From IMG/VR virus record IMGVR_UViG_2061766007_000017, positions 1,312-65,311 of that record: DNA of 64,000 nt. The stretch is one strand, 5' to 3'. How positions within the stretch are numbered: the stretch's first letter is position 1; every line of letters starts with the position of its first letter. The DNA is from a virus (Duplodnaviria > Caudoviricetes). Of this stretch, positions 10,295-50,260 are shown in pieces. The translations under genes were made by a program, and so were the position numbers. Under the pieces are notes generated by a model. The model was given only the letters and a program-made list of their open reading frames with translations. It was not told the DNA's origin and made no database searches.

Positions 10295-12031
10295 TTAAGC
10301 AGCGCGGATGACACCCTCGTAGTAAACCCAGCCGTCGAGATCGACGCTCCATTCGACGACATCTCCCTTGTAGAAGCCGTTCTGGTCGTCGTCGGCGGTG
10401 AGGTAATACTTCTTGGTTTTCGCATCGGCGGTAAGGGCACTGCCGGACGGCAGGGCGCTCACGGACTGGAACTCGGCCTGGATGCCGCCAGTGTTCTTCG
10501 CAGAGAGCGCAAGGCTGGACGGGCAGACAAGGATAGAGTTGTAGCCGTTCAGGGCCACGCAGTCGATACGGCACAGGTTGTGCTCCTTCGCCTCGCGAGC
10601 CTCGCCGGTCTTGGACATGTCACGGGTGGTCTTGTACTCGTTCTTCATGTAGTAACGGGTGGCGTTCTTGAGGTCGAGCACGACCATGTATTCATCATAA
10701 CCGAGGTCGTCAAGGGTGCGATCCCAAACGAACTCCAGCGTACCGAAGTTGTCGGAGTAGTTGCGCACACGGATACCGTAGTCGTTCACTTCGACCTTGC
10801 CGACATCCTTGTACTTGTTCGCGGAGTTCACCAGACGGATGAAACGCTTCATGGCCTTCTTGCCGCAGAACACGGTCGCATCCTCGGACATGGCGTTGTC
10901 CGTGAACATGAGGGTGGTGATAGCGAGCAGGTCGTCGTCCGTGAGGTCGAAGCCGTGGGTGTAGAGCATGTTCACCTGACGGAGCAGGCCGTTCTCTAAG
11001 TACACGCGCTCGCGACCGGTCTCCGGAACCATGATGTCCTTGCTGCCCATCGTGCCGTTCCAGTGGGAGCGGGCGCACTTGCGCTTGAAGTTGTAGGCCG
11101 CGTTGTCGAGAACCTGCTGGGTCTTGTGGGAAATCTTCTTGGTCTGCTCATCGAAGTAGTCCGTGATGACGACGGTCTCAATCTTCTTCTGCAGGAACTG
11201 GTCAAAGCCTTCCGGCAGGTAGGTTTCAGGGGCGACGCGCATCTGGGACTCGGAGCAGGCGGTAGCCATGACATAGAGTTCGGTGTTCGCAGCAAAGGTG
11301 ACGGCAGTGGCAGGATCGGATGTGGAATCCACAGGCGGGTTCACGACATAGAACTTGACCTTATCGCTCCCGTCCTTATGGTCGAGCACATACAGGATCA
11401 TCTCGCCATCGGAAATCTCGTTACCGGAATCGTCCTTCTTGAAGCCTTCAACGCCACGCACGGCCACGGTGGAGTATTCCATAAGGGCCTCGGCATTGTC
11501 GAAGTCAGAGACATCAAGGGTAAGGATACTGGTGCTCGCGGTGAATTTGCCGGAGGTGTTGGCACCTGCGGTGATGGTGAAGGACGAGCCGGTGTACACG
11601 GCCACGAGGTCGGTGGAGCCGCTGCGGTAATGCTTGTGGACGTAACTCTTGACCTTCTGCGGACGGCAACGACGCGCGACATAGGTCTCCAGCGGGAAGG
11701 CGAACTTCTTGAAGTTGTCCACACGGGCATCATAGTCTTCCGCTTCCAGGCCGGCATCAGTTACATCAGTTCCGGTAGCGGCATGGCCCTGGAGTTGGGT
11801 CTTTCCACCCTGCTCGTCGGTCTGGATGGTCTCATCCGCGGGACGGCCACCGGGGTTGGTGCTCGCATTGTAGGTTTCCAGATTATCCGAAGGATTGGCG
11901 TCGGGGGCCAGATCCACCGGATCGACTGCCATAGCAAAGCCGAGGTCTGCTCCCAGCAGAGCGGCGGCAATCACAAGCAGCGCTGACAGGACGCTCATCT
12001 TGTGGGTTTTCAGGAAATTGAAAGTTTTCAT
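10295..12031 (-). CDS. Major capsid protein (HK97-fold, 578 aa) with N-terminal hydrophobic leader
   Basis: Likely start ATG 12031 (MKTFNFLKTHKM); follows the scaffold gene and is followed by a terminator; C-terminal half resembles SU10/DUF5309-type capsids (GLLRQV, VFCG, FGTLEFVWD, VVLDL). Confidence 0.75.
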   Translation of the reverse strand: MKTFNFLKTHKMSVLSALLVIAAALLGADLGFAMAVDPVDLAPDANPSDNLETYNASTNPGGRPADETIQTDEQGGKTQLQGHAATGTDVTDAGLEAEDYDARVDNFKKFAFPLETYVARRCRPQKVKSYVHKHYRSGSTDLVAVYTGSSFTITAGANTSGKFTASTSILTLDVSDFDNAEALMEYSTVAVRGVEGFKKDDSGNEISDGEMILYVLDHKDGSDKVKFYVVNPPVDSTSDPATAVTFAANTELYVMATACSESQMRVAPETYLPEGFDQFLQKKIETVVITDYFDEQTKKISHKTQQVLDNAAYNFKRKCARSHWNGTMGSKDIMVPETGRERVYLENGLLRQVNMLYTHGFDLTDDDLLAITTLMFTDNAMSEDATVFCGKKAMKRFIRLVNSANKYKDVGKVEVNDYGIRVRNYSDNFGTLEFVWDRTLDDLGYDEYMVVLDLKNATRYYMKNEYKTTRDMSKTGEAREAKEHNLCRIDCVALNGYNSILVCPSSLALSAKNTGGIQAEFQSVSALPSGSALTADAKTKKYYLTADDDQNGFYKGDVVEWSVDLDGWVYYEGVIRAA

Positions 12032-12059
12032 AACTATAAAGAATGAATGTGTTTCGTTA

Positions 12060-12833
12060 TTATCCTCTGGACAGGCCGTCCCAGATGTCGTCCTCACGGG
12101 CAGGACGGGGTTGGCGTTCGCGCGTGGCAGCGCCCTGTCCTCCGACAGGTGCCGGGGGCATCCCGTTGGCCGCACTCCGGTCGCGTCGTGCTGCTGCGAT
12201 ACGGGCGTTTCGGCCAGCGACCTCTCCTTCCGCACGGGCCGCGGCGACATCGTTGTCGTGGTGGATGGCGTTGTAGGCAAGGTCGAAGTCCTCTGCGGCA
12301 TACTTGTTCTCCATGCCGTTGAATGTGATGGAAAGGAGACGGAGCATGACATCGCGCTTGTCCTCCAGGGACAGGCTCTTTCCGTTGCCCCATTCTTCCA
12401 GAGCGGAGAGGGATGCCTGCCAGTTACCTTCCGCTTCTGACTGAAGCCGGTCGTTCTCTGCCTTGCGTTCTCTCCAGCCTTCGAGTTGGGACTTGAACCG
12501 CGAGCGGCCTTCCTCGCTCATGCCGAGTTCGTCGCCAAAGGTCTCCACAAGCGCGGTTCGAGGGTCTCCTGTCTCAATCCAGCGGCTGATGAACTCCGCA
12601 GCGGACGGGTCGCTCATCAGAAGGTCGCGGAGACGATTGTTGTTCTCGTCGTATGCGGCCTGCCGGGTGGTGAAGTCCTCCAGCATCTCGTTGATTGCGT
12701 CGTCGAGATTGGCGACATTATCACCGGCCTCTGCACCGATGTCGGCGAAGGTGCGGTCGGGGAAACGCTCACGAGCGCGGGAAAGCAGGTTCTCGCGCGA
12801 GGACGGTTTTTTGTTCTTTTCGGATTTTGCCAT
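12060..12833 (-). CDS. Putative capsid scaffolding protein
   Basis: Charged helical/coiled-coil 257-aa protein directly upstream of the MCP. Confidence 0.6.
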   Translation of the reverse strand: MAKSEKNKKPSSRENLLSRARERFPDRTFADIGAEAGDNVANLDDAINEMLEDFTTRQAAYDENNNRLRDLLMSDPSAAEFISRWIETGDPRTALVETFGDELGMSEEGRSRFKSQLEGWRERKAENDRLQSEAEGNWQASLSALEEWGNGKSLSLEDKRDVMLRLLSITFNGMENKYAAEDFDLAYNAIHHDNDVAAARAEGEVAGRNARIAAARRDRSAANGMPPAPVGGQGAATRERQPRPAREDDIWDGLSRG

Positions 12834-12865
12834 AAGGTAAACGGGTTACTGTACCATAATCTGCC

Positions 12866-12910
12866 CAAAATTACCGCGTCAGTATGTGGTTTTCGGTCTA
12901 TCTTTCCCAA
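12866..12910 (-). promoter_or_regulatory. Putative late promoter 1 (TTGGGAAAGATAGACC-N21-TAATTTTG) for scaffold/MCP/tail
   Basis: One of five identical 16-mers, each 21 nt upstream of a -7-like box. Confidence 0.75.
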
Positions 12911-12983
12911 CTCTACAATGCAGAATCATGTTTTTTGATTATATTTGTCAGTAGGGACTACGCCTTCTGATGCGTTTCTGCCG

Positions 12984-13394
12984 ATGCGAGACACGGAACT
13001 TAAACGGAAGAAGGCGGATGCCCTATACTCCGTCTATAAGAAAGGCTTGCAGGAGGGACGCTTCGCCTCGCTTTATGACGCGGGGAGATGCGTTTCCCGT
13101 TCACCTGCACCTTGCTTTTTCATATCCGCAAAGAGGGCTTCACTTCTTGTCGGCAGGATAACCGCCAGAATCTCGCTCATCAACCTGAATGATTCACAAC
13201 GGAAGATGGCGTGGCGGCTCTGGTTCAACTACCAGCACTACTTGGAGACACACCCAGGCAACACCCTGTCCCGTGAACGGGTGATGGAGATACTGGTGGA
13301 CGAGCCGGCCCCTGAGTTCTACATATCGACTGACGGAGCAAGACGGCTGCTTAAAGAGCGCATCGAGAGGACAAGGAGGGAGAAGGGATGGTGA
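12984..13394 (+). CDS. Hypothetical protein, first gene of the terminase operon (TerS or regulator candidate)
   Basis: Likely start ATG 12984; TATATTTG box at 12940-12947; internally duplicated PAP.F[FY]IS motif. Confidence 0.6.
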   Translation: MRDTELKRKKADALYSVYKKGLQEGRFASLYDAGRCVSRSPAPCFFISAKRASLLVGRITARISLINLNDSQRKMAWRLWFNYQHYLETHPGNTLSRERVMEILVDEPAPEFYISTDGARRLLKERIERTRREKGW

Positions 13395-13876
13395 GAGTCG
13401 TGCTCATAATCGTGCTGGTCGCATTGCAGGTCGTGTTCGGAATCCCTGGATTCATGCAGGGAGGGCCGTACTGGGAGCGTGCACTGCTTTACTCCTTTTT
13501 TCACGCGAACTGGTGGCATCTTGCCGTGAACGGGATTGCCGCTATCAGCATCTTTGCACCTTCGCGCAGAGGTAACATGCCGCATCTATTGTCTGGGTAC
13601 ATAATAGCCGTCCTTGTCTATCCACTTTCGTTCCGTCCGGTCATAGGATTCTCAAATGTCCTTTACGCAGTCCTCGGACTACGAACTCCGTCACTCAAAA
13701 GCGGATGGTGGAAAAGGCCGGAAGTGATAACCTTCCTTGTTGTCACCATCGCGCTCATCTTCGCGCCGCGTTTCAGCGCCACGACCCATATAGCGGCTTT
13801 TATCCTTGGAATGGCCGGCGCATCCGTCAAACGATTCCACAAAGACCTGACAAGTGATTTCAGACGCTATCTATAA
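13388..13876 (+). CDS. Rhomboid-family intramembrane serine protease (minimal)
   Basis: FFHANWWHLAVN (HxxxxHxxxN), GFSN (catalytic Ser motif), TTHIAAFILG (catalytic His); several TM helices. Confidence 0.8.
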   Translation: MVRVVLIIVLVALQVVFGIPGFMQGGPYWERALLYSFFHANWWHLAVNGIAAISIFAPSRRGNMPHLLSGYIIAVLVYPLSFRPVIGFSNVLYAVLGLRTPSLKSGWWKRPEVITFLVVTIALIFAPRFSATTHIAAFILGMAGASVKRFHKDLTSDFRRYL

Positions 13877-15965
13877 CGAGTTCATCGCGGAGAACGAAAA
13901 GCGATGGAAGCGGTTGCGGGCGGAGTACGACCCCGTAACCGGGGAAGGCATCGCCGAACTCACAGGGCTTAAGCGGGTAAGGTTTGAACTACCGGACTAT
14001 GCAATTCCTGTCCAGTGGGTTCCGGAATCCATGATGAAGAACAAACTCATCAGGGAGGTAAAGCGGGCCGGCAGCATCGAAAAGTACATCGAGACGAAGA
14101 AATGGAAGTACGGTGCACCGGACGCGCAGGAAATTGAAAGGAGGATTCGGAGAATCCGTCACAAGCACGACTTTGTGCACTGGGCATACTTCTGCATCTG
14201 GATCAAGCACAAGACCGCGAAGAAACGGGTCCGCTTTGTCCTAAACCTTCCCCAGTTGGAGGTACTGGCGATATGCGAACGGATGAGGGCGGTTGGAGTA
14301 CCCATATCCATCATCATACTGAAAGCGCGTCAGTGGGGCGGTTCAACTTTCTGCTTCTTCTATCAATGCTGGCTACTGTTCAAGTGGAACGAATTCCACG
14401 CTTTTGCCATAGCCGCGCATGTATCGTCGGCATCCGAGACTATCCTGGCCATGCTCAAAAGGAGCATCGAGGACTATCCGGCATGGGATTTGGGACTTCC
14501 GGACGGTACGGAACTGCGTCTTGTGGCGACCGACAGCGCCGGACACGAATACGCCATAAGAGACCAAAACAACAAGCAGGTTCTGGAAGGTCATATCTTC
14601 ATCGGTTCAGCGGAGAAGCCGAACACCCTGCGTTCCAAGGATATTGCCGGCGCGCACTATTCAGAGGTCGGACTATGGCCGAACACTCCGCAGAAACAGG
14701 CGGACGACATTATCGCGGACATCGAGGGCGGCATGACGGACGACGAGGATTCCATGCGCGTCATGGAATCTACGGCCAAGTCCTCGGACGACTATTTCGC
14801 AGACACATGGCGATCGTGCGACGGTGGGAGGGGTGGCTATGAACAGGTATTCGTACCGTCCAGGGACATCATCTTCGACAACAGGAAGATTGACAACCTG
14901 CGCGAGTTCGTGGACTGGCTGGTGTCGCACAGGGACGAGGACATCCCGAACGGTAAATGGAAGGATACCGGCAAATACTATTGGTGGCTCTGGGAACTCG
15001 GTTCGACGCTGGAGCATATCAACTGGTATCGTTACCGTCGTTTGCGTCTATCATTTGCCAAGATGTGCAACGAGGCTCCCGAAACACCGGAACAGGCTTT
15101 CTTCACCGCTGGTAACCATGTGTTCGACCCGTTCCTGGTTCACGAAAAGTTAATGAAATGCCGTGAACCAGTATTCGTGGGCGACCTTGTTGCAAACGGA
15201 GAGAAAGGCGCGGAGGCTCTGGAGGACATCCGCTTCATACCAAACTCGACAGGAAACCTTCGTATCTGGGAGAAACCAGACGACTCGCCAGTGTCGAACC
15301 GCTATATCGTCATTCTTGACCCGCGCCGCGGCGCAAGCGAAGGGGCAGACCCGGCCTGCATTACGGTCATAGACCGTCTTCTGATGATGGAGGAATTTGG
15401 ATTGAACGGAAAGCCGGGCGTAGTCGCGGAGATGAACTACAAGGCAGACCCGGATCTGCAAGCCTACGATGCGATGCGTGTCGCGAAGTGGTACAATGAC
15501 GCGCTGCTCGTCATTGAATCAAACACGATGGAGTCCATGAACAAGGAGCGCAACAACGGCATCGATTCGTTCGAGTACATCATGGACATCGTATCTGGCC
15601 TGTACCGCAATCTCTACATGCGCCGCACCAAGGAGGAAAATGTAAAGGAGGGGACGAACGGGAAATGGGGATTCCACACGAACCCCAGTACGAAACCGAA
15701 GATTATCAACTTCATGAAGGTATGCCTCCGAGACGACCTGTGGGACGAGCCTTCACAACTCTGCTGCTCGCAGATGGCATCATACATGGAAGACCACGGA
15801 AAGACCGATGCCGAACACGGAAAGCATGATGATGTCGTCATGTCCAGGGCAATCGGACTTTGGGTCTGCTACAAGGAGATGGAGCCGCCGGCATGGATAG
15901 TGCCCGCACAACCGCAGCAAGATTCAATCATTCACGGGGACAACCTCGGACTGACAAGATTATAA
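13854..15965 (+). CDS. terL: Terminase large subunit
   Basis: ILKARQWGGST (Walker A), AHYSEVGLW (Walker B), MESTA, RNase H-like IVILDP...ESN...HDDVVM. Confidence 0.92.
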   Translation: MISDAIYNEFIAENEKRWKRLRAEYDPVTGEGIAELTGLKRVRFELPDYAIPVQWVPESMMKNKLIREVKRAGSIEKYIETKKWKYGAPDAQEIERRIRRIRHKHDFVHWAYFCIWIKHKTAKKRVRFVLNLPQLEVLAICERMRAVGVPISIIILKARQWGGSTFCFFYQCWLLFKWNEFHAFAIAAHVSSASETILAMLKRSIEDYPAWDLGLPDGTELRLVATDSAGHEYAIRDQNNKQVLEGHIFIGSAEKPNTLRSKDIAGAHYSEVGLWPNTPQKQADDIIADIEGGMTDDEDSMRVMESTAKSSDDYFADTWRSCDGGRGGYEQVFVPSRDIIFDNRKIDNLREFVDWLVSHRDEDIPNGKWKDTGKYYWWLWELGSTLEHINWYRYRRLRLSFAKMCNEAPETPEQAFFTAGNHVFDPFLVHEKLMKCREPVFVGDLVANGEKGAEALEDIRFIPNSTGNLRIWEKPDDSPVSNRYIVILDPRRGASEGADPACITVIDRLLMMEEFGLNGKPGVVAEMNYKADPDLQAYDAMRVAKWYNDALLVIESNTMESMNKERNNGIDSFEYIMDIVSGLYRNLYMRRTKEENVKEGTNGKWGFHTNPSTKPKIINFMKVCLRDDLWDEPSQLCCSQMASYMEDHGKTDAEHGKHDDVVMSRAIGLWVCYKEMEPPAWIVPAQPQQDSIIHGDNLGLTRL

Positions 15966-16383: not shown

Positions 16384-18384
16384 TTACATCGGTGCGGCAG
16401 GAACCGCCGGGGCACCATACTGAGGAACCGCTTCCGGCGCGGACCCCGTTGGCATCCCGGCCTGTTCCGCTGCTTCCATTTCGGCCTGTCGTGCCTGCCG
16501 TTTCTGGAGGATCTTGTCCACATACGGCTTGCTGCTGGCCTCCAGGTATTCCTCGAATGTGATGAAACCGGCTTGGAGGAAAGTAAGGAGGTCTTGTTCC
16601 TGCATCTCGCGGAAAACGGGAGTGTCCGCACTTTCCTTGATGCGCAGGTCGTATTCGAGGTCTGCTATCTCGTTCAGGTTGATAGCGGACATGTCGTAGA
16701 GAGTGTCGATGCGTCCGGCAATCTTCTCGAACCTGTCCGTATCGTAGAAACTGACGATGTTCTTCATCTTCTTGTTGAGCACGGCCAGTACAAAGTTGTG
16801 GAACTGCTCCATAAGGGCAGCGATAGGCGTGGACGCATTCGCGCTCATCTGGGCATACAGCGTTCCCGATGTGCCAGAGTTCGGCGTTTTGCCCTGCAGG
16901 GCACCGTTCACAGGAGAACCAGCGTCCATGAGGTGCTGGTATGTCGCCAGCAAGCCTCCGACATCGAAAGTCTGAGCAACTCCGTGGAACTGCTTCGGCA
17001 GAAGTTCTTCCTCGCCTGGCCCTATGTCCACATAAACAAGGTCGTCAATGCTTGCCCATGCGCGCGCAAATTCCTTCTCGGTGATTTTCCCTCCGAGTAG
17101 CCTTCGCGGTACGACCGTAACGCCCTTCGCCTGCGAACGGACGAGCCAGTCGTGAAGGACGACCGCCCTGTTCATGGCGATATTGTGGTCGATTGCATCG
17201 TTCATGTAGCCGACAATCCTGCCGTCGATGTATGAGAAGATGCAGAAGTTGAACGGATGCGTGCGGTCTGCGTAAGGGGATTCGCCTTCCCAAAGTATAG
17301 TTCCGTCAGGTGCCAGGAAACGGCAGTACCAGTAAGTGTCGATGAAGAATCCGTTACGCTCCACATCGTCTTTGCCATATCCGTCTCCGATGATGTAAGG
17401 GGCCTCGTCCTCGTCCCAACCGGATGCGACCGCAAGTTTCTTGCGGCGCTCGTTCTCGGACTTTACCTGCTTGCGGTATTCATAATCATCAGCGTCGATG
17501 ATTTCCTCATAGCCGACATTGGTATCGTGCAGACGGATTTTCGCCCGTGTCTCTTTCGTCCAGACCTCGCATACATAGCACTTGGTAGGGTCGTTGGAAC
17601 GCATGAACGATATGCCGCCGTCCTCAAACTTGTCCTCCGGCCCTTCAGGGCTTTCAAGACGGAACGGGCTGGACTGGTCTCCGTAAATTTCCTTCAAGAT
17701 TCCGTAATCGGATGGCTTGCGGACAAACTGGCCGCAGATTTCCTCAAACGCGCCGTAATAGAACCTGCCAACGATTGACAGGTCCCAGAAACGGGGATCT
17801 ACACCACCGCCATCGAAGAAAACAAGGTTTGGGTTGATGTATTGCGTCCAGGAATCGAGCCTTCTATTCGGGCCATGTGTAGCATCGTAGGATTCATAGG
17901 AGACCGCCAGACCGCCCAGGTTCAGGTCCTTAATCCACTTGATGTAGAGTTCGGGCATCACATTCTTGTCGCAGTTGGCCTGTATTGCGTTTGTCACGAC
18001 CTCGCCATACTGCTGCTCGTCGCGGTCGATAGCATGGCATACCGGCTCGTTCCTTTCCTTCACCATCACGCCAGCGATCGTGTCCACGCGGTTCTTTATC
18101 TGGTTGGTCTGAATGACGACATTACCGGTCTGCATGAGATACTGGCGGTAGGTCATGGTCTTGCCGTTCACGGTAATCGGGTCTGCCCACTGGTCTCCGT
18201 CATAGAACCTGTGTCCACGGGCACGCTGCTGGCGGAATGAATCGAGATTCATCCAGACGGCCTCACAGCGTTTTAGCAAGTCCACATCCTTGTCCTTGAC
18301 GCGGATTTCCTTCTTACGCACCCTTACGGAATCCATATCCGCGGGTGTAGATTTCCTTTTTATGAGACGGTCTGCCTTGAACAT
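16384..18384 (-). CDS. Portal protein (P22-like size)
   Basis: ~666 aa; N-terminal R..R..FYDGDQW...N.I...V motif typical of podovirus portals; likely start ATG 18384 (alternative GTG 18399). Confidence 0.85.
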   Translation of the reverse strand: MFKADRLIKRKSTPADMDSVRVRKKEIRVKDKDVDLLKRCEAVWMNLDSFRQQRARGHRFYDGDQWADPITVNGKTMTYRQYLMQTGNVVIQTNQIKNRVDTIAGVMVKERNEPVCHAIDRDEQQYGEVVTNAIQANCDKNVMPELYIKWIKDLNLGGLAVSYESYDATHGPNRRLDSWTQYINPNLVFFDGGGVDPRFWDLSIVGRFYYGAFEEICGQFVRKPSDYGILKEIYGDQSSPFRLESPEGPEDKFEDGGISFMRSNDPTKCYVCEVWTKETRAKIRLHDTNVGYEEIIDADDYEYRKQVKSENERRKKLAVASGWDEDEAPYIIGDGYGKDDVERNGFFIDTYWYCRFLAPDGTILWEGESPYADRTHPFNFCIFSYIDGRIVGYMNDAIDHNIAMNRAVVLHDWLVRSQAKGVTVVPRRLLGGKITEKEFARAWASIDDLVYVDIGPGEEELLPKQFHGVAQTFDVGGLLATYQHLMDAGSPVNGALQGKTPNSGTSGTLYAQMSANASTPIAALMEQFHNFVLAVLNKKMKNIVSFYDTDRFEKIAGRIDTLYDMSAINLNEIADLEYDLRIKESADTPVFREMQEQDLLTFLQAGFITFEEYLEASSKPYVDKILQKRQARQAEMEAAEQAGMPTGSAPEAVPQYGAPAVPAAPM

Positions 18385-18408
18385 ACGGAAAAAGTGCACT
18401 TTATGTTG

Positions 18409-49006: not shown

Positions 49007-49372
49007 TCAGACTTCGACAAGACGGAATTCAATGTGAGGATTCGCCTTGTCAATGAACTTCTCCGCGACAATCTTCACGCACTTGTTGTCGTTCTTGATT
49101 GTACGGGTGTATTGCAGGCAGTCCAGGATGATTTTGAGGGCATTGTCAAGGTCGTGGCTCATCGACGCGAAATAGATGCGCAGATGAAACTCAAAATAGC
49201 CCTGTATCATCATGTTCCGATACGGACCTACCTGCATGTAGAAAGTGTTCTCGTAAGCCTTAAGACCAGGCGTTTTCGCAAGACTACCGTGACCGGCAAT
49301 CGTGACTATCTTATAGGAATTTGATTTGGAAGGAGCCTGTCCTACGATTGTCTGCCAGGGATGCTCTGTCAT
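49007..49372 (-). CDS. rusA: RusA-like Holliday junction resolvase
   Basis: DLDNALKIILDCLQ...IKNDNKCV motif. Confidence 0.8.
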   Translation of the reverse strand: MTEHPWQTIVGQAPSKSNSYKIVTIAGHGSLAKTPGLKAYENTFYMQVGPYRNMMIQGYFEFHLRIYFASMSHDLDNALKIILDCLQYTRTIKNDNKCVKIVAEKFIDKANPHIEFRLVEV

Positions 49373-49677
49373 TTGCGCGTCTTTTCTTCCGATAGTTCGT
49401 CCAACTCGTCCTTAAAGGTCTTGACAGGCACCTCACCCTTGTATTCCACGGATGCCATCTTCGGGGATATGTACGGAAGGAGTTGGAGCATGATGGAGCA
49501 TTTCTTCTCAGGATCGTCTATGCTGTCGTAGTTGTGAAGGAATTCCTCCCATTTGCTCTCCACGAACTTCGAGATAAGTTCACGCACCTCTTTGGTGGAC
49601 TTGTTAGGCGTTCCCTTTACCCGTCCACCCTGCCGCCCCTTTCCGTCGGCCTTCTCCCTTTTGTTCCCACCGGCCAT
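49369..49677 (-). CDS. Terminase small subunit-like protein
   Basis: Likely start ATG 49677 (MAGGNK); GGRVKGTPNK motif followed by helices. Confidence 0.5.
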   Translation of the reverse strand: MAGGNKREKADGKGRQGGRVKGTPNKSTKEVRELISKFVESKWEEFLHNYDSIDDPEKKCSIMLQLLPYISPKMASVEYKGEVPVKTFKDELDELSEEKTRK

Positions 49678-49681
49678 GTCT

Positions 49682-50260
49682 CTACTTGTACTTGTATGCC
49701 GGGCCGAACGGCTGCATCGGACGCTTGACGATTGACGCACCGCTGAATCCGCTTACGATGGCATCCTCAATTTCCTTCAACTGAGAGCCATATACTGAAG
49801 CCTGCGGCATACCGAACTGGGAATACCAGTCGAACAGGGCACCAAAGACAAGGAAACGATGGATGTATTCTGCCAGCGGACGGAGCATCTGGTCGTTAAA
49901 CTCCGCATCCAGAACAAGGTCGTACACATACTTGCCTTCTTCCAGCGTGATCTGGTCATTGGCATATCCGTTTTTCCTTGGATTAAGGACGGACTGAATC
50001 TTTGTCCGGAGTTTCGCGTCACGGAATTCAACATACCGCATGAGCACTGCACCGTCCACATCCTCGGATGAATCGGACGACACGGCATTACCAGTTCGGT
50101 CTGCCATGTCCGTCCGTGCGTCCACATGCTTGTGGGTGTTCAGGTTGATGTCCTTGAACACCTCGCCCTTTATAATCTCTATCTTGCGCTCCTTGGTCTC
50201 GTTTGCTTCATCGGAGTCAGCGAGGATGATTGGGGCGATGAATCCGTATCTGCGTGTCAT
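49682..50260 (-). CDS. Putative adaptor/ring protein (paralog 3)
   Basis: Helical-beta-helical layout similar to its two upstream neighbours; in a late operon. Confidence 0.5.
   Translation of the reverse strand: MTRRYGFIAPIILADSDEANETKERKIEIIKGEVFKDINLNTHKHVDARTDMADRTGNAVSSDSSEDVDGAVLMRYVEFRDAKLRTKIQSVLNPRKNGYANDQITLEEGKYVYDLVLDAEFNDQMLRPLAEYIHRFLVFGALFDWYSQFGMPQASVYGSQLKEIEDAIVSGFSGASIVKRPMQPFGPAYKYK

Follow-up and report, generated by a model that had tools for sequence, protein, structure and literature searches.

A virus-encoded rhomboid protease that tracks a hydrophobic leader on the major capsid protein of Bacteroidales tailed phages

Introduction

The viral DNA considered here (IMG/VR record IMGVR_UViG_2061766007_000017; Duplodnaviria, Caudoviricetes) is a stretch of 64,000 nucleotides, which we refer to as the window and which covers positions 1312–65311 of a virus record that is complete, spans 65,311 bases and has direct terminal repeats. 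The window encodes an integrase, a repressor, a P22-like portal, the terminase large subunit TerL, a T7 gp14-like internal protein and a polyvalent protein of 7942 amino acids, and as judged from its sequence the phage is a temperate, podovirus-like Bacteroidales phage. Its relatives are prophages of Bacteroides, Phocaeicola, Prevotella, Muribaculaceae and other Bacteroidales, and the only isolated relative that we found is Bacteroides phage BF1-TP2 (PQ571263), whose head-gene order is identical. Two of the genes at this locus are our subject, one for a minimal rhomboid protease and the other for a major capsid protein (MCP) whose precursor begins with a hydrophobic leader; below we describe the two proteins, trace how they have been kept and lost together, and weigh what the leader and the protease might do for each other.

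The rhomboid protease and the capsid protein leader

The rhomboid gene (13388–13876, plus strand) encodes a minimal six-helix rhomboid serine protease of 162 amino acids, identified by PF01694, by its fold and by its invariant catalytic residues. The PF01694 score of 29.2 bits passes the curated cut-off of 22.6, and the motifs GFSN (G87, S89) and TTH (H134) are both present; an earlier note on this DNA, made from the sequence without database searches, had placed a minimal rhomboid with both catalytic residues in the terminase operon, and that description holds. The stop codon of the rhomboid overlaps the GTG start of TerL at 13854. Across 47 diverse rhomboid homologs, for which the mean column identity is 23%, the only invariant residues are H39, H44, N48, G87, S89 and H134, and this pattern of invariance looks like that of an enzyme kept active. 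An AlphaFold2 model of the protein (pLDDT 95) matches the GlpG fold (TM 0.6–0.73, probability 1.0; Z 12.6 with 135 aligned residues and a root-mean-square deviation of 3.2). Loop charges and the positive-inside rule suggest that both the N- and C-termini lie inside, together with loops 2 and 4, and that the active site faces the periplasm. Of the 47 phage rhomboids, 23 have the rhombosortase family TIGR03902 as their top NCBIfam match; the window rhomboid scores 17.4 bits against this family, short of its equivalog cut-off of 84.

The precursor of the MCP (10295–12031, minus strand) is a 578-residue protein with the HK97 fold. It matches PF17236 (SU10_MCP) above the cut-off, and matches to the VP1 capsid (E 1e-20) and the crAss001 capsid (E 2e-12) support the fold. 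A longer reading of 685 residues from 12352 was rejected, as it overlaps the scaffold gene and the homologs begin at the Met at 12031. The leader comprises residues 1–35 (11927–12031, minus strand) and runs from a basic amphipathic n-region through a hydrophobic helix (residues 12–26) and a Gly-rich turn to a conserved Met34-Ala35, with the candidate cleavage site between A35 and V36; an acidic linker, modeled with low confidence, follows. That the MCP starts with a hydrophobic helix and continues with GADLGFAMA-VDP had been noticed earlier, and the helix and the sequence are indeed as then described. Comparison with close relatives indicates purifying selection on the leader (pN, nonsynonymous, 0.08 vs. 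pS, synonymous, 0.37). Among 116 representative full-length MCPs, a leader can be recognized in 97, with identities as low as ∼22%, and the MCP of the isolated phage BF1-TP2 also carries one.

Leader and rhomboid across related phages

Does the rhomboid follow the leader from phage to phage? The combination that would speak against the pairing, a rhomboid accompanied by a leaderless MCP, was encountered in 0 of ∼450 related loci, an outcome in keeping with the co-occurrence that the earlier note had anticipated. The phage survey covered 401 loci, which form 82 clusters at 80% identity; leader and rhomboid are both in place in 42 clusters, both are missing in 22, with the rhomboid slot deleted, and a leader stands without a rhomboid in the locus in 8. 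Six of these 8 were dismissed as exceptions because the rhomboid has been relocated elsewhere in the same record. When whole records were searched, the rhomboid was found in 34 of 37 leader-bearing records, the other three being two fragments (16% and 39%) and the complete genome G037. Among leaderless records, the rhomboid turned up in 1 of 37, and this same record is the sole case among the 24 that are at least 90% complete. The record G006 was rejected as a counter-example, since its rhomboid belongs to a second, leader-bearing head module. This IMG/VR record (L099/G006), with one leaderless and one leader-bearing head module, is either a chimera or a case of tandem prophages.

Comparison of 11 whole genomes singled out the rhomboid as the only family present in all 6 leader-plus-rhomboid genomes and in none of the 4 leaderless ones, and the leaderless genomes of this set showed no gene that might compensate. 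In an MCP tree built without the leader, the leaderless clade is nested among leader-bearing MCPs. A conserved gene that otherwise lies upstream of the rhomboid abuts TerL directly in this clade, and therefore the rhomboid slot has been deleted there. Two other explanations of the pattern were considered and set aside. Leaderless MCPs are not artefacts of start calling, which is ruled out by in-frame stops and a proper start context just upstream; nor is the rhomboid tied to TerL instead of the MCP, given that in several phages and in Prevotella it is parted from TerL and still tracks the leader.

Independent replicates in rumen Prevotella

In metagenome-assembled genomes (MAGs) of rumen Prevotellaceae, the head genes are scattered among host genes, and these genomes provide replicates of the comparison. 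An intact phage-type rhomboid is present in 14 of 14 leader-bearing Prevotella MAGs vs. 0 of 7 leaderless ones (uncorrected Fisher p 9e-6); the leaders here are weaker, and the rhomboid is kept even where it lies apart from both MCP and TerL. In 6 of the 7 leaderless MAGs, the upstream neighbor gene is assembled, and the continuous sequence after it contains no rhomboid; this serves as a control for incomplete binning. The Prevotella losses represent 3–4 separate events, as monophyly of the leaderless rows is rejected (approximately unbiased test, p 9e-6). Together with the one phage clade, the leader has thus been lost 4–5 times independently, each time in concordance with loss of the rhomboid and with no discordant case. 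The proposal of a functional link between rhomboid and MCP leader is borne out to this extent: every observed loss of the leader goes with loss of the enzyme. This pattern of co-loss points to a putative membrane step in head building, of which we found no earlier description.

The scattering is itself worth recording. In ∼24 rumen Prevotellaceae species genomes, an MCP-adaptor-fiber-lysin cassette, the small gene with the rhomboid, the scaffold gene and TerL are separate pieces that sit among conserved host genes (apparent serB, heavy-metal ATPase), spread over 25–40 kb or on different contigs, with their open reading frames intact. This set (the L111–L177 cluster; for example, L490–L491 at G075:C1:305000–341580, and L492–L494) is a candidate for a domesticated particle system resembling a gene transfer agent.

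How the leader might be processed

We consider it probable, from the sequence evidence, that the rhomboid removes the leader and releases the mature MCP. The starting point of a mechanism is an intact rhomboid and a conserved leader that are evolutionarily linked. The basic end of the leader would stay in the cytoplasm as the hydrophobic helix inserts into and spans the inner membrane, and the Gly-rich segment would turn at the periplasmic face beside the rhomboid active site. From there, the chain would run back toward the cytoplasm as a hairpin, possibly via the Sec channel or via the bilayer thinned by the rhomboid, such that the HK97 domain could fold on the cytoplasmic side, the location of the scaffold protein, which carries no leader. 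Cleavage would occur at or just before Met-Ala↓X, with A35↓V36 as the best candidate, and the freed N-terminus of the mature MCP would sit where leaderless homologs naturally begin. What would such a detour be for? Speculatively, its purpose may be holding or timing, with the MCP membrane-bound and incompetent for assembly until the rhomboid/terminase operon is expressed; alternatively, the leader may serve to concentrate the MCP near membrane-bound initiators. Phages that lose the leader would then drop the enzyme, there being no other essential substrate. We lean slightly toward this reading in its full form, in which a widespread family of Bacteroidota tailed phages makes HK97 heads from precursors inserted in the membrane, and a rhomboid leader peptidase of the virus's own, cutting an N-in substrate, frees them and gates assembly. 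That heads assemble while tethered to the membrane is conceivable and on the doubtful side, and export to the periplasm for assembly is unlikely because the scaffold protein has no membrane signal and is shared with leaderless phages.

The topology of the leader deserves attention. The n-region is basic in 53 of 53 leader clusters and the stretch after the junction is acidic, and therefore, by the positive-inside rule, the leader should be N-in. The rhomboid substrates that have been characterized have an N-out topology and a prime-side helix, and their recognition motif and helix are separable.PMC2941825 The earlier note had likened the leader to a rhomboid substrate, and as argued there the likeness is not supported: with its N-in orientation and its helix on the non-prime side, the leader is the opposite of type I/III substrates.PMC2941825 At the candidate MA↓x site, P1 is small in 50 of 55 leaders and P4 is hydrophobic in 36 of 55. 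A hairpin would be the simplest way to reconcile this orientation with cutting by a rhomboid, and the long leaders carry a second hydrophobic stretch after the turn, as would fit a hairpin.

Several observations weigh against cleavage of the leader by the phage rhomboid. The canonical substrate topology (N-out, helix after the cut) is not that of the leader, and P2′ at MA↓x is hydrophobic in only 6 of 55 leaders, with the full P4/P1/P2′ motif in 5 of 55. An N-in leader requires that a hairpin be assumed, in which the polar stretch after the site must re-cross the membrane. The independent contrasts number only 4–5, and a sign test on starred branches gives p 0.125. Additionally, there are three lineages in which a leader is found without a phage rhomboid in the head module (G037/L374, L142 and an environmental clade), and in G037 (L097, a complete genome of 59 kb) the rhomboid is absent across the complete genome despite the leader; the phage enzyme is therefore not universally required. 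In the environmental clade (L509–L559, from metagenomes), the leaders are long, with ∼35–40 uncharged residues vs. a median of 23, and the head module, the part covered, holds neither a rhomboid nor the small upstream gene; here the anchor may be retained or a host protease may cut it. The relation holds in one direction only, as would be expected if the enzyme were useless without its leader substrate and a host enzyme were sometimes able to process the leader. The sister lineage G037/L374, which lies near the leaderless clade, has acidic residues after the leader helix and no rhomboid, and is possibly an intermediate state.

Other explanations

These rhomboid-less lineages keep alive the explanation in which host signal peptidase I (SPase I) or a host rhomboid cuts the leader and the phage rhomboid clears stubs or mis-inserted MCP precursors. 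This account predicts that the rhomboid is lost with the leader and accommodates leaders that have no phage rhomboid, and all of the MAG hosts searched carry a rhomboid of their own. The leader also has the anatomy of a Sec/SPase I signal, namely a basic n-region, a hydrophobic h-region and a polar c-region, and AMA↓V in the window fits the −3/−1 rule of SPase I. Across all leaders, however, the rule is satisfied at MA↓x in 31 of 55 and fails in 24, and Gln at +1, which is found in most Bacteroidetes SPase I substrates as a majority rule and not an absolute one,PMC5837995 is absent in 55 of 55. SPase I moreover normally cuts after export, which would leave the MCP on the wrong side of the membrane from the scaffold and the DNA, and we judge this explanation unlikely. 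A lipoprotein (Sec/SPII) signal was rejected outright, with a lipobox cysteine in 0 of 55 leaders. The same signal-peptide topology would suit a leader that acts as a default off-switch or decoy into Sec, its purpose being sequestration, such that the rhomboid rescues the MCP for the cytoplasm; without the rhomboid, as in leaky expression from a lysogen, the MCP would be exported, degraded or hidden from capsid-sensing defenses. The phage is a temperate one with integrase and repressor and its relatives are Bacteroidales prophages, as this idea would have it, but a single divergent promoter region is apparently common to both operons, which are thus probably co-expressed, and we regard the idea as improbable.

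Could the rhomboid instead act on a host membrane protein or on a phage protein other than the MCP, with the co-loss a side effect? There is precedent in the Stenotrophomonas phages DLP3 and DLP5, whose rhomboids are accessory genes away from the head genes,PMC7326821 and the independent contrasts are few; set against this are the findings that no other family tracks the rhomboid, that 4–5 losses are concordant and that no rhomboid is seen without a leader, even where the genes are scattered in Prevotella, which together make another substrate very unlikely. The notion that we find hardest to credit is a dual start, in which the Met at the junction starts a soluble MCP and the long form is a minor, membrane-anchored isoform. 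By automatic pick, ∼55 of 59 leaders have a Met at the junction, and the corresponding position is where leaderless homologs start, but the 21 bases before this Met are as rich in GC as coding sequence, with an AT fraction of 0.40 and A at −3 in 20%, compared with 0.79–0.81 and 63–74% for true starts, and in several homologs it is replaced by Leu, Phe, Val or Ala. A junction Met that lacks the Bacteroidota start signature and is replaceable largely refutes a dual start.

Comparison with known systems

Cleavage by the phage rhomboid, our favored account, has parallels in several known systems, none of which matches it in full. The window rhomboid shares its six-helix fold and Ser-His dyad with AarA of Providencia stuartii, which acts on TatA,PMC2941825 and with GlpG of E. 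coli (PDB 2IC8). As in the case of AarA/TatA, a short N-terminal extension would be removed to license assembly of an oligomer, at a candidate site where P1 is mostly small and P4 often hydrophobic. TatA, however, is N-out and the helix after the cut stays on the product, whereas in the phage the helix lies before the candidate site and would be lost from the product, which would be a soluble capsid protein of the HK97 fold; the phage enzyme, furthermore, is virus-encoded and lacks a soluble domain. The rhombosortase/GlyGly-CTERM system (TIGR03902)PMC3237569,PMC6219818 likewise has a dedicated rhomboid that is co-distributed with a terminal signal made of Gly-rich, helical and basic parts. That signal sits at the C-terminus (GlyGly, helix, basic), whereas the phage leader is at the N-terminus and runs in the opposite order (basic, helix, Gly-rich); with its low score as well, the window enzyme is not a rhombosortase. 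Rhombosortase substrates also differ in being exported surface proteins that become lipid-linked.

Among phages, T4 has a membrane-associated prohead that is released by proteolysis by gp21, with removal of an N-terminal piece of its MCP.PMC9958956 T4 differs in that it is tethered via its portal, uses a soluble prohead protease, and has in gp23 an MCP without a hydrophobic leader. Bacteriophage BF1-TP2 is alike in gene order, in having an annotated rhomboid and in its MCP leader; it differs in sequence (MCP ∼21% and rhomboid ∼33% identity), its annotation does not link rhomboid and leader, and we found no paper on it. The coat protein of M13, procoat (pVIII), is made with a cleavable membrane leader that is cut by host leader peptidase. 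M13 differs in being filamentous, in that its mature coat stays in the membrane, in the use of a host enzyme and in the absence of an HK97 shell.

In the literature that we covered, which did not extend to subscription journals, a description of a pairing between a rhomboid and an MCP leader was not found, and rhomboids go unmentioned in Benler 2021 and in the LoVEphage and 2026 Bacteroidales prophage papers. The enzyme is a new member of a known family, and it is its pairing with a capsid leader for which we found no described counterpart.

Which proteins bacterial rhomboids cut in nature has long been a gap in our knowledge. If the proposed processing is correct, then to our knowledge, and judging by our searches, no rhomboid encoded by a virus had a substrate assigned to it before, and no capsid protein of a tailed phage was previously known to mature through intramembrane proteolysis; the family concerned is a large one that infects gut and rumen Bacteroidales. 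The system offers a minimal enzyme of 162 residues, a single candidate substrate that is abundant, and in nature both hundreds of enzyme–leader pairs and knock-outs. Type strains with inducible prophages (Bacteroides congonensis, Phocaeicola massiliensis) and the isolated phage BF1-TP2 provide material for study, and the reversed orientation of the substrate would test whether rhomboids cut hairpin or signal-peptide-like substrates.

Neighboring genes and other features

The rhomboid/TerL and MCP operons diverge from a 150-bp gap, the single intergenic region that the earlier note had described them as sharing. This gap (12834–12983) is a putative divergent promoter region, recognized by consensus match only: it has one Bacteroidota-type TAnnTTTG (−7-type) element per strand, at 12866–12873 (minus) and 12940–12947 (plus), among 17 matches in the whole window. 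Between the gap and the MCP sits a scaffolding-protein candidate (12060–12833, minus strand), which is acidic, helical and without a leader, is assigned its function from position and composition, and is present in 11 of the 11 genomes compared. Between the gap and the rhomboid lies a conserved gene of ∼137 residues (12984–13394, plus strand), which overlaps the start of the rhomboid, is retained in leaderless relatives, opens the packaging operon, always ahead of the rhomboid slot, and is possibly a DNA-binding protein or late regulator. TerL (13854–15965, plus strand) matches PHROG 2, and the P22-like portal protein (16384–18399, minus strand) was assigned by profile matches. In several leaderless phages (L031, L037, L050, L365, L382, L399 and L404), the orientation of TerL is inverted.

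Prohead proteases of the S78, S49, S14 and S77 types were found neither in the whole record of the window nor in four relatives. The earlier note had used such an absence to argue for the rhomboid; its observation stands for the whole record, but its argument falls, since leaderless, rhomboid-less relatives lack a prohead protease too and the absence therefore carries no weight. Those relatives are scaffold/P22-portal phages. The window also encodes an S24-type domain, and its giant protein has an HExxH motif; neither is a prohead protease.

A gene with a GGRxKG motif (49369–49740, minus strand), ∼35 kb from TerL, encodes a probable small terminase subunit. The giant protein, the 7942-residue polyvalent protein (23245–47073, minus strand), combines SNF2/helicase, MuF_C, LPD23, LPD38, ddrB-like ParB and zeta-toxin-like domains with the HExxH metallopeptidase motif, which is at residue 6389, and is probably a virion protein that is ejected.

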